The position numbers and the translations under genes were made by a program. Source: Escherichia coli (lineage in GTDB: Bacteria; Pseudomonadota; Gammaproteobacteria; Enterobacterales; Enterobacteriaceae). From it: a stretch of DNA of 64,000 nucleotides. The notes beneath the pieces are model-generated. The model saw only the letters and a program-made list of their open reading frames with translations, was not told the origin of the DNA and did no database searches. Where the stretch lies: NCBI RefSeq assembly GCF_024298765.1, contig NZ_CP101210.1; one strand, written 5' to 3'. The first letter of the stretch is position 1, and the number at the start of each line of letters is the position of its first letter. Below are positions 3,200 through 59,720 of this stretch, piece by piece.

Positions 3200-3905
3200 T
3201 AATAAATATCCTCCGGCATAGCCGGAGGTTTTTCAAATGCGCCTATAAGGCTCTCTTACCAGCCGCGCCCTAACAGGCGCACACGATCTGACATTTGCAT
3301 CCAACTTCGTTACTTACGGCCCGTAAACGGGCTGCCCGGATAGGGAATCGATAACTGCTCTCCCATTTTATCCTCTTCAAGCTGGTGCTTTATGTAATCC
3401 TGTATCTTCGCCGTGTTCTTACCCACCGTATCGACGTAGTACCCTCTGCACCAGAACTCTCTGTTCCTGTATTTGAATTTCAAATCACCAAACTGCTCGT
3501 AAAGCATCAGACTGCTTTTCCCTTTCAGATATCCCATAAAGCCGGATACACTCATTTTGGGCGGGATCTCCACAAGCATATGGATATGATCTGCACAGCA
3601 TTCAGCTTCAAGAATCCGTACGCTTTTCCACTCACACAGCTTTCTCAAAATACTGCCTATTGCTCTACGCTTCTCTCTGTAGAACACTTGTCTTCGGTAT
3701 TTTGGCGCAAAAACTATGTGATATTTACAGTTCCATCGGGTGTGCGCTAAGCTCTTTTCGTTCCCCATTGGGACCCCCTTTTGATTTCTTGTTTGACACT
3801 TGCAGTTGCCAGACCGCAAGGTGTTTTAACAAATCAAAAGGGGTTTTAATAACTGGCTCAAAGCTGAAAGCTTTCCGGAACCCCCAGCCTAGCTGGGGGT
3901 TTTCT
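3200..3905 (-). mobile_element. IS200-family insertion sequence (~0.7 kb); ends approximate
   Basis: Single Y1/HuH transposase gene plus a perfect hairpin CCCCCAGC-ctag-GCTGGGGG (~3871-3889) upstream of tnpA, as in IS200; sits in what should be a short pabC-fabF spacer. Confidence 0.75.
3310..3768 (-). CDS. tnpA: IS200 transposase TnpA (IS200/IS605 family, Y1 HuH)
   Basis: 152 aa from MGNEKSLAHTRWNCKYHIVFAPKYRR, with HuH motif ADHIHMLV and a catalytic Tyr region; track ORF trimmed to the internal Met. Confidence 0.9.
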   Translation of the reverse strand: MGNEKSLAHTRWNCKYHIVFAPKYRRQVFYREKRRAIGSILRKLCEWKSVRILEAECCADHIHMLVEIPPKMSVSGFMGYLKGKSSLMLYEQFGDLKFKYRNREFWCRGYYVDTVGKNTAKIQDYIKHQLEEDKMGEQLSIPYPGSPFTGRK

Positions 3906-10360: not shown

Positions 10361-10546
10361 TTAACTTTGTAACGTCATAGAGTCAAAGAAAAAGGCAGCC
10401 TGTGGTTGCCTTTTGCCAATAATTCGCACACATTGCGGGTTACTGCTTTATTTTCGTTCAGTGCTGATAACGAACATCAACCTGCAAAACGAAGCGCATA
10501 GTTTAAAATGGCTATCATCAATACGCTATATCTGATGGAAAAAAAT

Positions 10547-11131
10547 ATGCCTAAACTTATTTTAGCCTCCACCTCGCCCTGGCGTCGCGCTCTTCTGGAA
10601 AAACTGCAAATCTCTTTTGAATGTGCAGCACCCGAGGTCGACGAAACTCCACGCAGCGACGAATCACCGCGACAGTTGGTGCTTCGACTGGCACAAGAAA
10701 AGGCGCAATCTCTGGCGTCACGTTATCCGGATCATTTAATTATTGGTTCAGACCAGGTATGTGTTCTTGATGGCGAAATCACCGGTAAACCGTTAACGGA
10801 AGAAAATGCCCGTCTGCAATTACGCAAAGCCAGCGGCAATATCGTCACCTTCTATACTGGACTGGCGTTGTTTAATTCGGCGAATGGGCATCTACAAACA
10901 GAAGTGGAGCCTTTTGACGTCCATTTCCGTCACCTGAGCGAGGCGGAGATTGATAATTACGTGCGTAAAGAGCATCCCCTGCACTGCGCGGGTAGCTTTA
11001 AGAGTGAAGGATTTGGCATTACTCTGTTTGAGCGTTTAGAGGGGCGTGATCCTAACACGCTGGTTGGTTTACCGCTAATCGCGCTGTGTCAGATGTTACG
11101 TCGGGAAGGGAAAAACCCGCTGATGGGATAG
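10547..11131 (+). CDS. yceF: Maf-like nucleotide pyrophosphatase
   Basis: 194 aa from [17 protein letters not shown] (Maf family); track ORF trimmed. Confidence 0.85.
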
Positions 11132-11138
11132 TTTTTTG

Positions 11139-11215
11139 CGCCGGATGCGGTTACTTCGCATCCGGCAATCGGTGCTGGCGGCCTGATGCGGCGTAAACGC
11201 CTTATCAGGCCAACC
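11139..11215. repeat. REP-type palindromic units
   Basis: GCCGGATGCGG...CGCATCCGGC and GCCTGATGCGGCGTAAACGCCTTATCAGGCC between the convergent yceF and rluC. Confidence 0.7.
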
Positions 11216-12202: not shown

Positions 12203-12774
12203 GGTGGGCGATTCTAATTAGCCAACAGGATTCGCGCCACTCATTTTTCTATGCTTATATTTAGTTTTGCACCTTATTACTTCACTACGTGATCACTTTA
12301 TTGATGGTTATTAAACCAATCACCAGCAAGAAGTGAAAAAACTGTGAGTAAGCGGGTGATAAATGGTAAAAGTCATCTTGCTATAACAAGGCTTGCAGTG
12401 GAATAATGAGGCCGTTTCCGTGTCCATCCTTGTTAAAACAAGAAATTTTACGGAATAACCCATTTTGCCCGACCGATCATCCACGCAGCAATGGCGTAAG
12501 ACGTATTGATCTTTCAGGCAGTTAGCGGGCTGCGGGTTGCAGTCCTTACCGGTAGATGGAAATATTTCTGGAGAGTAATACCCAGTCTGTTTCTTTGATA
12601 ATTGCGCTGTTTTTCCGCATGAAAAACGGGCAACCGACACTCTGCGCCTCTTTGAGCTGACGATAACCGTGAGGTTGGCGACGCGACTAGTCACGAGGCC
12701 ATCGGTTCACACCCGGAAAGGCGTTACTTTGCCCGCAGCTTAGTCGTCAATGTAAGAATAATGAGTAAGTTACG
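12203..12774 (+). promoter_or_regulatory. rne promoter region and long structured 5' leader
   Basis: ~570-nt ORF-poor spacer upstream of rne; the leader of rne is known to mediate RNase E autoregulation. Confidence 0.6.
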
Positions 12775-22447: not shown

Positions 22448-23248
<801 letters not shown>

Positions 23249-23274
23249 TTAGTGACAAAGTGCATCTGTCTTCT

Positions 23275-23335
<61 letters not shown>

Positions 23336-23400
23336 GATTGCCCCATAGACCCGATAAACTTGCGCATCGGGCAACTTATACTTGTCATGTATCCTTTCAA

Positions 23401-24156
23401 TTAACTCATCGACAGCAGTTGGTTGGCTCGGCCTGCGTTATCATCGACGCTGCTGATCACCTTCATCTGCATTTCAAAACGCCGCGCGCTGGCAATCATG
23501 TCGCTCATTGCCGCAACGGCATTGACGTTACTGCCTTCCAGAACACCCGACATCACACGCAAGGTTGGATCTGCCTGCAGTACCGGCCCACGCGTGGTCT
23601 GGGTTTCTGCGCTTAAACGAAAAATGCCGTCGTCACCGCGCTGGACTTCGCTGCCCGTGGCTTTCACCAGTTTCAGACGCCCCACTGGCGCAACCGTATT
23701 TGCCGGATCGCCCGGATTCAGCGCCGAGATTGTGCCATCGGCAGCAATAGTGATTTCCGCCCCTTCCGGCACAGCAATTGGCCCAGCCTCGCCTATCACC
23801 GGATGTCCCTGAATTGTCAGTTGCCCGGTGGGATCAACCTGAATGCTGCCATTACGCGTATACCCTTCGCTACCGTCAGCGGTCTGCACGGCCAGCCAGC
23901 CATCCTGCTGCAACGCAACGTCCAGCGGGCGCGAGGTGTAATCCATCTTGCCGGGCGTCATGTCTGCACCCGGCGTTGACGCCGTTACCAGCGTGCGCGT
24001 AGGCAGTGAAAGCCCTTCCACCGGCACTGCGCGCAAGGCGTTTAACTGCGCGCGAAAACCGGGCGTTGAGGCATTGGCCAGATTACTGGCAGTTACCGCC
24101 TGTTGATTCAACGTCTGGCTGGCTGCTCCCATCGCGGTATAAATTGCGTGATCCAT
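23401..24156 (-). CDS. flgF: flagellar proximal rod protein
   Basis: 251 aa. Confidence 0.93.
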   Translation of the reverse strand: MDHAIYTAMGAASQTLNQQAVTASNLANASTPGFRAQLNALRAVPVEGLSLPTRTLVTASTPGADMTPGKMDYTSRPLDVALQQDGWLAVQTADGSEGYTRNGSIQVDPTGQLTIQGHPVIGEAGPIAVPEGAEITIAADGTISALNPGDPANTVAPVGRLKLVKATGSEVQRGDDGIFRLSAETQTTRGPVLQADPTLRVMSGVLEGSNVNAVAAMSDMIASARRFEMQMKVISSVDDNAGRANQLLSMS

Positions 24157-35243: not shown

Positions 35244-35348
35244 TCACGAGGGCGCATTCGCGCCCTTTATTTTTCGTGCAAAGGAAAACGTTTCCGCTTA
35301 TCCTTTGTGTCCGGCAAAAACATCCCTTCAGCCGGAGCATAGAGATTA

Positions 35349-48083: not shown

Positions 48084-48458
48084 ATGACCATGTACGCAAC
48101 GCTTGAAGAAGCCATTGACGCTGCACGCGAAGAATTTCTTGCAGACAACCCCGGCATCGACGCCGAAGATGCGAATGTGCAACAGTTCAATGCCCAAAAA
48201 TACGTTTTGCAGGACGGCGACATCATGTGGCAAGTTGAGTTTTTTGCCGACGAAGGGGAAGAAGGTGAATGTTTACCTATGCTTAGCGGTGAAGCCGCGC
48301 AAAGTGTTTTTGATGGCGACTATGATGAGATAGAGATACGCCAGGAGTGGCAGGAAGAGAATACATTACATGAATGGGACGAGGGGGAATTTCAGCTTGA
48401 GCCACCGCTGGATACCGAGGAAGGACGCGCAGCAGCTGATGAGTGGGATGAACGTTAA
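48084..48458 (+). CDS. msyB: acidic protein MsyB
   Basis: 124 aa, highly acidic, MTMYATLEEAIDAAREEFLADNPG. Confidence 0.9.
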   Translation: MTMYATLEEAIDAAREEFLADNPGIDAEDANVQQFNAQKYVLQDGDIMWQVEFFADEGEEGECLPMLSGEAAQSVFDGDYDEIEIRQEWQEENTLHEWDEGEFQLEPPLDTEEGRAAADEWDER

Positions 48459-48686
48459 TCACTCATACGGGCCATGATGAATGTCGATCGGCAGCAGTAA
48501 AGTATCGAAAACCAGGGAGAATGGCAGATCAAGGATCGTGACGTAACGCCAGGCGGAGTCACGCACGTCCCATTGCACACCGGGATAATATTGGTTGCCA
48601 TGCCCCTGCCCCGGTATAGTGCGACTAATGATGCTGCCACAGCCACTCAGCAAGGTCACCATTATGCTCATCACAATTAAACGCAT
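48459..48686 (-). CDS. yceK: lipoprotein YceK
   Basis: 75 aa with lipobox LLSGC. Confidence 0.85.
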   Translation of the reverse strand: MRLIVMSIMVTLLSGCGSIISRTIPGQGHGNQYYPGVQWDVRDSAWRYVTILDLPFSLVFDTLLLPIDIHHGPYE

Positions 48687-48748
48687 TTGATACCTCTTCC
48701 GTAAAAAATACCGGCATAACGCCGGTATTTTTATTGGCTCGTTGTTTT

Positions 48749-48857
48749 TGCCGGATGCGGCGTGAACGCTTTACCCGACCTACAAAATCTTGCAAAATCA
48801 ATAAATTGCAGGAACGATGTAGGCCTGATAAGCGTAGCGCATCAGGCAACTACGTTT

Positions 48858-48885
<28 letters not shown>
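48749..48885. repeat. BIME/RIP element: REP - IHF-site-like motif - REP
   Basis: GCCGGATGCGGCGTGAACGC..., central AAATCAATAAATTG, GCCTGATAAGCGTAGCGCATCAGGC, and a final REP overlapping the last codons of opgH. Confidence 0.75.
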
Positions 48886-53040
<4,155 letters not shown>

Positions 53041-58316: not shown

Positions 58317-59069
58317 GTTGTCACCCTGGACCTGGTCGTACATTTAAGAAATTAAATCATTTCAACTTGGTTGTTAACGCAACCTGTATTTTGTTAACGC
58401 TGCGTTACGATGGAAAGTATGTCTGCGGAAATATTTTTAATAACTCACCCGCGCGTTGTATTTTTCTTTTTTTGTTCATACCAAAGTATTAAAACTCACG
58501 TAAATACGCTGTTATCTACGCAAAAAATATTTTGTTTTCTTTTAAATCTCCGTTTTCCGCTATCAAAAATCACCAGACAATCATTCTTCTTGCCCGTCGC
58601 TGATTGCTGCGATATGTCTTGCGCACAAGCCGTGACAAACCTCGTCTTTTTGCAGTAAAAAATTGTCCACGGAGGTGTGGAGAAAAAACAAGAACGTTTT
58701 ACATGACGAAAGGACTACACCGAAATATTTTTTATATGCATTATTAGTAAGTTAGCACCATTTGTATGATTTTTTAAAATTGTGCAATAAAAACCAAATG
58801 TACAACTTTTCTATCATTTCTAAACTTAATAAAACCTTAAGATTAACATTTTAATATAACGAGTTACATTTAGTTACATGTTTAACACTTGATTTAAGAT
58901 TTGTAATGGCTAGATTGAAATCAGATGTAATCCATTAGTTTTATATTTTACCCATTTAGGGCTGATTTATTACTACACACAGCAGTGCAACATCTGTCAG
59001 TACTTCTGGTGCTTCTATTTTAGAGGCAGCTGTCAGGTGTGCGATCAATAAAAAAAGCGGGGTTTCATC
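58317..59069. promoter_or_regulatory. csgB-csgD divergent intergenic regulatory region
   Basis: ~750-bp AT-rich ORF-poor spacer between the divergent csgBAC and csgDEFG operons; a known regulatory hub for curli expression. Confidence 0.8.

Positions 59070-59720
<651 letters not shown>

Follow-up and report, generated by a model that had tools for sequence, protein, structure and literature searches.

Two REP-flanked IHF-site linkers, after opgH and between flgF and flgG of Escherichia coli, are very probably copies of the known repeat BIME-1

Two short elements in a 64,000-nucleotide (nt) stretch of Escherichia coli DNA (contig NZ_CP101210.1, hereafter the window) are, with high confidence, both copies of BIME-1, for which the names RIP (repetitive IHF-binding palindromic element) and RIB are also in use. 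One copy follows opgH (locus 1), and the other lies in the spacer between flgF and flgG (locus 2). The element was reportedly described by Gilson et al. in 1991, by Oppenheim et al. in 1993, and by Boccard and Prentki in 1993. The two copies are an ordinary, already known element, because their layout fits the published BIME-1 definition and the same two loci of K-12 each hold a copy. By that definition, one y REP and one z1 REP are inverted relative to each other, their CTAC/GTAG tails face an L linker that is long and conserved and includes an IHF consensus, and the unit is present in single copy (PMC3333891); the same layout is described in PMC2817692. A Y REP, an inverted Z1 REP, a 35-nt linker, and an IHF consensus were found at both loci, each time as a single Y-L-Z1 unit with no tandem array, and the unit recurs in dispersed form with REPs among the matches listed by the scan described below. 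The initial annotation had proposed a RIP/BIME-type arrangement, which the layout at both loci bears out. In general terms, BIME-1 is a non-autonomous repeat of roughly 105 to 160 bp in Escherichia and close relatives, in which the Y REP and the inverted Z1 REP stand on either side of the conserved L linker with its IHF site, and weakly conserved inverted flank motifs follow on the outside.

Locus 1 is flanked by mdoH/opgH and yceK, both on the minus strand. The opgH open reading frame (annotated as mdoH) occupies 48858 to 51431, including its TAA stop codon at 48858 to 48860, and yceK starts at 48686. The element sits with the opgH stop codon on one side and a conserved terminator before yceK on the other. 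It spans 48750 to 48853 and opens with a Y-type REP (48750 to 48783, plus strand; GCCGGATGCGGCGTGAACGCTTTACCCGACCTAC), with the head outward and the CTAC tail toward the linker. The 35-nt L linker follows (48784 to 48818, plus strand) and contains the core GCAAAATCAATAAATTGCA at 48792 to 48810, within which the IHF consensus AATCAATAAATTG lies at 48796 to 48808; 8 nt separate the core from each REP tail, the same distance as in the family. The unit closes with an inverted Z1-type REP (48819 to 48853, plus strand), which consists of GTAGGCCTGATAAGCGTAGCGCATCAGGC plus AACTAC, closing onto GTAG. Thus, the motif indeed lies between REP palindromes, as had been claimed for 48749 to 48885, and these palindromes are the Y REP and the inverted Z1 REP at 48819 to 48847.

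The two arms of locus 1 are unequally preserved. The Y REP is decaying, with four substitutions against the consensus of 55 copies, two lost stem pairs, and a weakened hairpin (-12.6 kcal/mol, z = -1.75). The Z1 REP has no substitution against the family consensus over 48819 to 48847, and its hairpin on the mRNA strand is stable (-16.7 kcal/mol, z = -4.0). The GCCUGAU stem of this hairpin begins 10 nt past the opgH stop codon; the GUAG extension of the stem (GUAG/CUAC), if formed, would begin 4 nt past it. Only the inner parts of the flanks are kept at locus 1. On the left, the inner part is found at 48737 to 48749 (GCTCGTTGTTTTT, compared with GCGCTTTGTTCAT in the alignment of 55 copies), and the outer left motif is missing where the terminator hairpin sits.

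This terminator is an intrinsic hairpin, AAAAAUACCGGC-GUUAU-GCCGGUAUUUUUU, at 48704 to 48736 on the minus strand, between the BIME and the yceK start. It is canonical, has a U-tract (-16.4 kcal/mol, z = -4.9), and is conserved in relatives without the BIME. A role of the BIME as the opgGH terminator was rejected because this U-tract hairpin lies downstream and is kept even in species that lack the BIME. A promoter for yceK inside the BIME was also rejected, as no promoter-like site was found there and a search of 48400 to 49000 for a sigma-70-like promoter returned none.

A 401-nt query around locus 1 was 100% identical to E. coli ATCC 11775 (NZ_CP033092.2) and was matched in 5,425 of 5,426 complete E. 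coli genomes. The K-12 RefSeq feature table lists no REP or RIP feature for the opgH-yceK and flgF-flgG stretches, so the K-12 record lends no annotation support; the feature table returned for ATCC 11775 does not list these repeats either.

Locus 2 lies between flgF (stop codon at 23401 to 23403) and flgG (start at 23230), both on the minus strand, and is intercistronic within the flgB-J operon. With flanks, the element spans 23246 to 23394. A left flank motif (GGATTAGTGACAAAGTGCATCTGTCTTCTT, 23246 to 23275) is followed by a Y-type REP (23276 to 23309, plus strand) that has no substitution against the family consensus and folds into a stable hairpin (-20.9 kcal/mol, z = -4.7). The 35-nt L linker (23310 to 23344, plus strand) carries the core GCGAAATCAATAAATTGCG at 23318 to 23336 and the IHF consensus at 23322 to 23334, and here, too, 8 nt lie between the core and each REP tail. 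Next comes a degenerate inverted Z1-type REP (23345 to 23372, plus strand; ATAGACCCGATAAACTTGCGCATCGGGC) with six substitutions and one deletion against the consensus. Its stem is retained through a compensatory T>C/A>G pair, by which GCCTGAT/ATCAGGC became GCCCGAT/ATCGGGC, and its hairpin reaches -10.7 kcal/mol (z = -2.4). The right flank motif, AACTTATACTTGTCATGTATCC (compare AATTTTGCGTTTGTCATCAGTCT of the family), occupies 23373 to 23394. With both flank motifs present, the element takes up nearly the whole flgF-flgG spacer. The initial annotation had placed the motif merely beside a REP at about 23275 to 23335; the Y REP is there, but the second REP had been missed, and the motif is flanked on both sides.

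Two forms of the flgF-flgG spacer occur in E. coli. A spacer with BIME-1 (at least 80% query cover) was found in 3,467 of 5,426 genomes, and in at least 1,259 genomes a different insert with the core CCCCTCACCCTAACCCTCTCCCCAAAGGGGCGAGGG replaces it. This core presumably resembles boxC. The alternative insert is itself dispersed (median of 5 places per genome), and the two spacer forms share the flank motifs on the outside (TTAGTGACAA... and ...TGTCAT), as seen when window positions 23231 to 23400 are set against positions 166 to 335 of the E. coli UTME-2 locus (L129).

The two window copies resemble each other well beyond the shared motif. Locus 1 and locus 2 agree at 82 of 104 nt (79% identity), compared with 57.5 ± 3.4 matches (about 55%) in a shuffled control whose maximum in 500 shuffles was 67. 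Exact occurrences of the 14-mer AAATCAATAAATTG in the window are limited to 48795 to 48808 and 23321 to 23334; in 64 kb, a repeated 14-mer is no rarity. Both loci hold a perfect match to the 13-nt IHF consensus WATCAANNNNTTR, which agrees with the earlier claim of a WATCAA-N4-TTR match. By itself, this degenerate consensus turns up often (7 times in the window, with 2.7 expected), so its significance rests on context and not on the motif. A further perfect match (TATCAAAATATTG) lies at 59312 to 59324. On the mRNA (minus) strand, the REP hairpins of the two loci range from -10.7 to -20.9 kcal/mol, and the whole-region folds give z = -5.1 and z = -4.5.

Recurrence of the unit was assessed with the pattern GCRAAWTCAATAWATTGCR, which holds the linker core alone and no REP bases. 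One reference genome per species was scanned, at least 120 loci were obtained, and 70 nt on either side of each match were scored for REPs. The scan favours young, consensus-like copies, and the matches that it listed do not include the window's own genome. Among the matches listed, 61 fell in Escherichia and Pseudocitrobacter (E. albertii, three other Escherichia genomes, and two Pseudocitrobacter genomes), and 55 of these were REP-flanked on both sides. In the flanked matches listed, the left-hand REP was of type Y (gap of 7 to 8 nt) and the right-hand REP was an inverted Z (gap of 7 to 9 nt, once 11). The other six comprised five one-sided matches, explained by internal deletions or a contig end, and one coincidence in conserved coding sequence. 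The 8-nt gap between core and tail was present in 45 to 48 of the 57 family matches listed. Outside these genera, 57 of the 59 matches listed had no REP. The two flanked exceptions, on a contig of a "Bacteroides" metagenome-assembled genome (L022) and on a 262-bp "Desulfosporosinus" contig (L039), are near-consensus E. coli BIME-1 copies and are probably Enterobacteriaceae contamination. Within E. coli, a 51-nt linker-centred BLAST query matched in 5,425 of 5,426 genomes, at a median of at least 12 places per genome (range 4 to 23, with 9 in ATCC 11775; these counts are lower bounds). The genome-wide recurrence with REPs on which the initial annotation had staked its reading was thus found.

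Aligned, the 55 two-sided copies give the consensus ...AGATTGCTGACAAAGTGCGCTTTGTTCAT / GCCGGATGCGGCGTAAACGCCTTATCCGGCCTAC / AAAATCTT GCAAATTCAATATATTGCAG AAACCTT / GTAGGCCTGATAAGCGTAGCGCATCAGGC / AATTTTGCGTTTGTCATCAGTCT, in which the outer flanks, too, are inverted repeats. Two further observations concern related sequences. The 19-mer GC(A/G)AAATCAATATATTGCG is also present in conserved sequence of many Enterobacterales and at one Listeria locus, without REPs and with coding-like flanks (L010, L017, L018, L069, L088, L092, L095, L112, L114, L115, and L117). Another REP pair in the window, GCCGGATGCGGTTACTTCGCATCCGGC followed by GGCCTGATGCGGCGTAAACGCCTTATCAGGCC at 11138 to 11215, lacks the L linker and lies just past the end of a plus-strand open reading frame.

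The end of opgH next to the element deserves separate treatment. The initial annotation had described a distal REP at about 48866 to 48888 overlapping the final codons of opgH. What stands of this is an 11-nt REP head inside the gene: positions 48868 to 48878 (minus strand), in the codons P-D-A-A, match the REP head CCGGATGCGGC exactly. What does not stand is a REP unit, which is an imperfect palindrome of 20 to 40 nt with a REP head, a complementary arm, and a conserved GTAG/CTAC foot. Neither a partner arm nor a GTAG/CTAC tail was found for the fragment, and the GTAG/CTAC pair nearby is part of the Z1 REP. Folded locally, the sequence yields a weak hairpin (-10.8 kcal/mol, z = -1.5, with 19 of 200 shuffles as good), the small local palindrome AUUGCG...CGCAAU is not significant, and the local fold geometry differs from that of a REP. 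The fragment and the Y REP head at 48751 to 48761 are exact 11-nt inverted repeats 105 nt apart, which pair with each other in the minimum-free-energy fold of the mRNA and so enclose the whole BIME.

Several comparisons bear on the origin of this fragment. In 467 kb of Escherichia DNA, the 11-mer CCGGATGCGGC occurs 47 times, 45 of them in REPs, with one other non-REP case. The codons CCG-GAT-GCG-GC (P-D-A-A) are common in E. coli, which makes a chance match to a REP head easier. The fragment is not a REP, but it is probably not pure chance either; our preferred view, held at about even odds, is that it is a remnant derived from a REP. That locus 1 is instead a three-REP cluster, with a genuine third REP at 48866 to 48888 overlapping the opgH end, is highly improbable. 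The exact head match, the concentration of the 11-mer within REPs, and the pairing with the Y head would all suit a third REP, but the missing arm and tail and the insignificant hairpin would not, and the motif has drifted to CCAGATGAAGC in a distant ortholog. In addition, the fragment has the same orientation as the adjacent Z1 REP, though REPs in BIMEs alternate (PMC2817692).

Comparison with relatives points to a change at the end of the gene itself. In nearly all relatives, OpgH ends two to three residues past ...LNPLAL(K/R), the ending without the BIME being ...LNPLALK-x-K; Salmonella has its own longer end, ...QGRASSVG. In Salmonella, Kluyvera, and two more relatives, the opgH stop codon is followed by 15 to 70 nt, the same terminator, and yceK, with no BIME-1. 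E. coli has about 150 extra nt between ...CGT AAA and the conserved terminator. These start exactly with CCGGATGCGGC and hold six extra codons (P-D-A-A-S-Q, 48861 to 48878, minus strand), the stop codon, and the BIME-1. The opgH copy is housed in this lineage-specific DNA, which extends from the ancestral gene end to the terminator and also supplies the last six codons of the gene. A relative with 79% nucleotide identity in opgH (L126 and L132) has the tail PDEASQ (with CCAGATGAAGC) and an orthologous BIME-1 in decay; there, the Z1 stem is intact, whereas the linker has lost its IHF core and erosion has affected the Y REP (L126 positions 375 to 507; L132 positions 1630 to 1810). The PDAASQ tail was found only where the BIME is present. 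Since tail and BIME occur together in E. coli and, in decayed form, at 79% identity, they travel together and are old. The similarity of the opgH tail and stop region to the outer flank motif of the family was weak in the 55-copy consensus alignment.

In other genera, palindromic elements of other kinds were observed at the same position, past the opgH stop codon and before the conserved terminator. A GTAG-type REP (GTAGGGCGGGTAAGCGAAGCGCCACCCGCC) is present at positions 930 to 1010 of L131, and a GC-rich palindrome is present both at the Kluyvera locus (L125 positions 620 to 700) and in L127 (positions 645 to 680), where it reads GCGCCATCCGGCG. This stretch appears to be a recurrent landing place for palindromic elements. 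About as likely as not, in our judgment, is a history in which BIME-1 arrived at the opgH end together with the REP-head fragment and replaced the ancestral terminus ...ALK-x-K-stop, so that repeat-borne DNA now encodes the OpgH C terminus and a REP hairpin stands 10 nt past the stop codon. In this history, the arrangement would predate the split at about 79% nucleotide identity, and other palindromic repeats would have colonised the stop-terminator stretch independently in other genera.

Repeat identity, hairpin potential, the insertion-type distribution among species, and the position relative to genes were observed directly at these loci; the mechanism outlined here is in large part taken over from the literature on the family. 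At the DNA level, the IHF heterodimer would bind the linker and bend it between the two REP arms. At the RNA level, the REP hairpins would be co-transcribed after opgH and between flgF and flgG, where they may act as barriers to 3'-exonucleases and shield the upstream mRNA. Rho-dependent attenuation at REPs may also occur, and the family is thought to have been spread by a REP-associated tyrosine transposase (TnpA-REP, RAYT). As for translation, PMC12306157 reports, after Liang et al. 2015, that REPs less than 16 nt from a stop codon cause ribosome stalling and lower translation. The Z1 stem, 10 nt past the opgH stop codon, falls within this range, and stalling may thus be predicted at opgH. 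From the flgF stop codon to the REP, the gap is about 24 nt, so the rule of less than 16 nt would not apply at the flg locus. The supplements of PMC12306157 do not list opgH or the flg genes.

The IHF sites might be locus-specific regulatory sites for opgGH/yceK or for the flagellar rod genes, and not passive cargo of the repeat, but we consider this very unlikely. In its favor, both window copies match WATCAANNNNTTR perfectly, whereas the family core, AATTCAATATATTG, is one base off the IHF consensus. The variant AAATCAATAAATTG of the window is carried by no other REP-flanked match among those listed, and the A that perfects the core (AAATCAA versus AATTCAA) is present in just 1 of the 57 other REP-flanked matches listed and is missing from the orthologs L068 (flg) and L126/L132 (opgH). 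However, the pattern was noticed post hoc, in two copies, and no functional conclusion is drawn from it; the bias of the scan toward young, consensus-like copies weighs on the comparison. Moreover, both sites lie downstream of or between genes and not at promoters, and a different repeat replaces the flg BIME in at least 1,259 E. coli genomes. The IHF core is also not conserved in orthologs. The K-12 flg copy (L130 positions 550 to 740) reads AAAATCGATAAATTG, with ATCGAT in place of the ATCAAT of the window and hence a broken WATCAA core; as described above, the distant opgH ortholog has lost the core and kept the Z1 stem. A core that is broken or lost in orthologous copies speaks against strong selection to keep IHF binding at these particular sites, and the sequence comparison gives a hint that retention favors the hairpins over the IHF site. 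In published IHF data, the accessible part of the supplements of the GeF-seq paper on IHF occupancy does not mention these genes, and REPs are not discussed in the main text of Prieto 2012 on IHF.

Searches against Rfam gave one match that could suggest a different identity for the linker. Positions 48784 to 48826 (plus strand) of locus 1 match RF02751 (ES036) over its full 43 nt, with 47.9 bits against a gathering score of 37.6. Taken at face value, the linker would encode a small RNA paralogous to ES036/CssrF, with the REPs as no more than its borders. The full-length match above the gathering score is what such an sRNA would require, but the reading is most unlikely. ES036 was defined by RNA-seq at K-12 positions 740211 to 740253, was reported without a transcription start, and is possibly a processing product (PMC4676190). 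Its type locus lies in the phr 3' region, in the K-12 phr-dtpD spacer (L128 positions 1489 to 1531), and comprises a Y REP, an L linker, and a Z REP, and ES036 is exactly the linker. Because the type locus is itself the linker of a Y-L-Z BIME, RF02751 is the BIME linker under another name. Furthermore, the matching strand at locus 1 is antisense to opgH and yceK, the promoter search mentioned above was negative for a sigma-70-like site, and locus 2 stays below threshold, with no match at E <= 1. Sub-threshold naRNA4 matches reflect REP similarity. Elsewhere in the window, Rfam matches above the gathering score were the rne 5' UTR element (12414 to 12750), SraB (10385 to 10553), STnc490 (3778 to 3901), ES056 (58923 to 59014, about 300 nt from the additional IHF consensus match at 59312), and the PyrC leader (35299 to 35348).

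Finally, common as the IHF motif is when taken alone, its chance adjacency to unrelated REPs without a composite unit is refuted by the flanking counts (two-sided flanks at fixed spacing in 55 of 61 family matches listed) and by the shuffle comparison, in which no shuffle approached the 79% identity of the two copies.

For biology in general, the present analysis adds little, since BIME-1/RIP has been known since the early 1990s and both copies are present in K-12. Its use lies in several specific points. For annotation, the Rfam "sRNA" match ES036 at locus 1 should be read as a BIME linker. With its 10-nt gap, opgH is a concrete candidate for the reported effect on translation of REPs near stop codons. 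The flgF-flgG spacer offers a natural dimorphism, BIME-1 versus another repeat, that is usable to probe effects of such elements on the relative expression of neighbouring flagellar genes. The six-residue OpgH tail provides a small example of repeat-associated DNA reshaping the end of a gene.

In comparison with known systems, the two window elements are closest to BIME-1 itself, with the same layout, a single copy per locus, and, for locus 1, a position that ends a transcription unit ahead of its terminator; nothing categorical separates them from it. They differ in detail: the core is AAATCAATAAATTG instead of AATTCAATATATTG, locus 2 is intercistronic in the flg operon, and one REP of each copy is partly decayed (Y at locus 1 and Z1 at locus 2). 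With the ES036 (CssrF) sRNA, the linker of locus 1 shares the fit to the full model, whereas its match is antisense to the local genes. BIME-2, which combines y and z2 REPs with a short S linker in tandem arrays and is a DNA gyrase target, shares the alternating REPs and the Y REP, whereas the window elements have a Z1 REP, the long L linker, an IHF consensus, and no tandem repetition. Enrichment of gyrase cleavage was reported for BIME-2, in a paper that does not mention BIME-1 (PMC6379681). REPINs are REP doublets that form hairpins and are mobilised by RAYTs (PMC8049555), an analogy that is drawn in PMC2817692. As in REPINs, the repeated unit consists of two inverted REPs with an embedded spacer and is presumably mobilised in trans by a RAYT (TnpA-REP); unlike in REPINs, the arms belong to different REP types (Y and Z1), and the spacer would be a conserved protein-binding linker. 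Small repeats that contribute coding sequence are known from ERIC, RPE, and Correia elements (PMC2229807). Similarly, DNA accompanying the repeat now makes up the six final codons of opgH together with its stop codon, although here the coding part is recognisable only as an 11-nt REP-head fragment and the extension amounts to just six residues.
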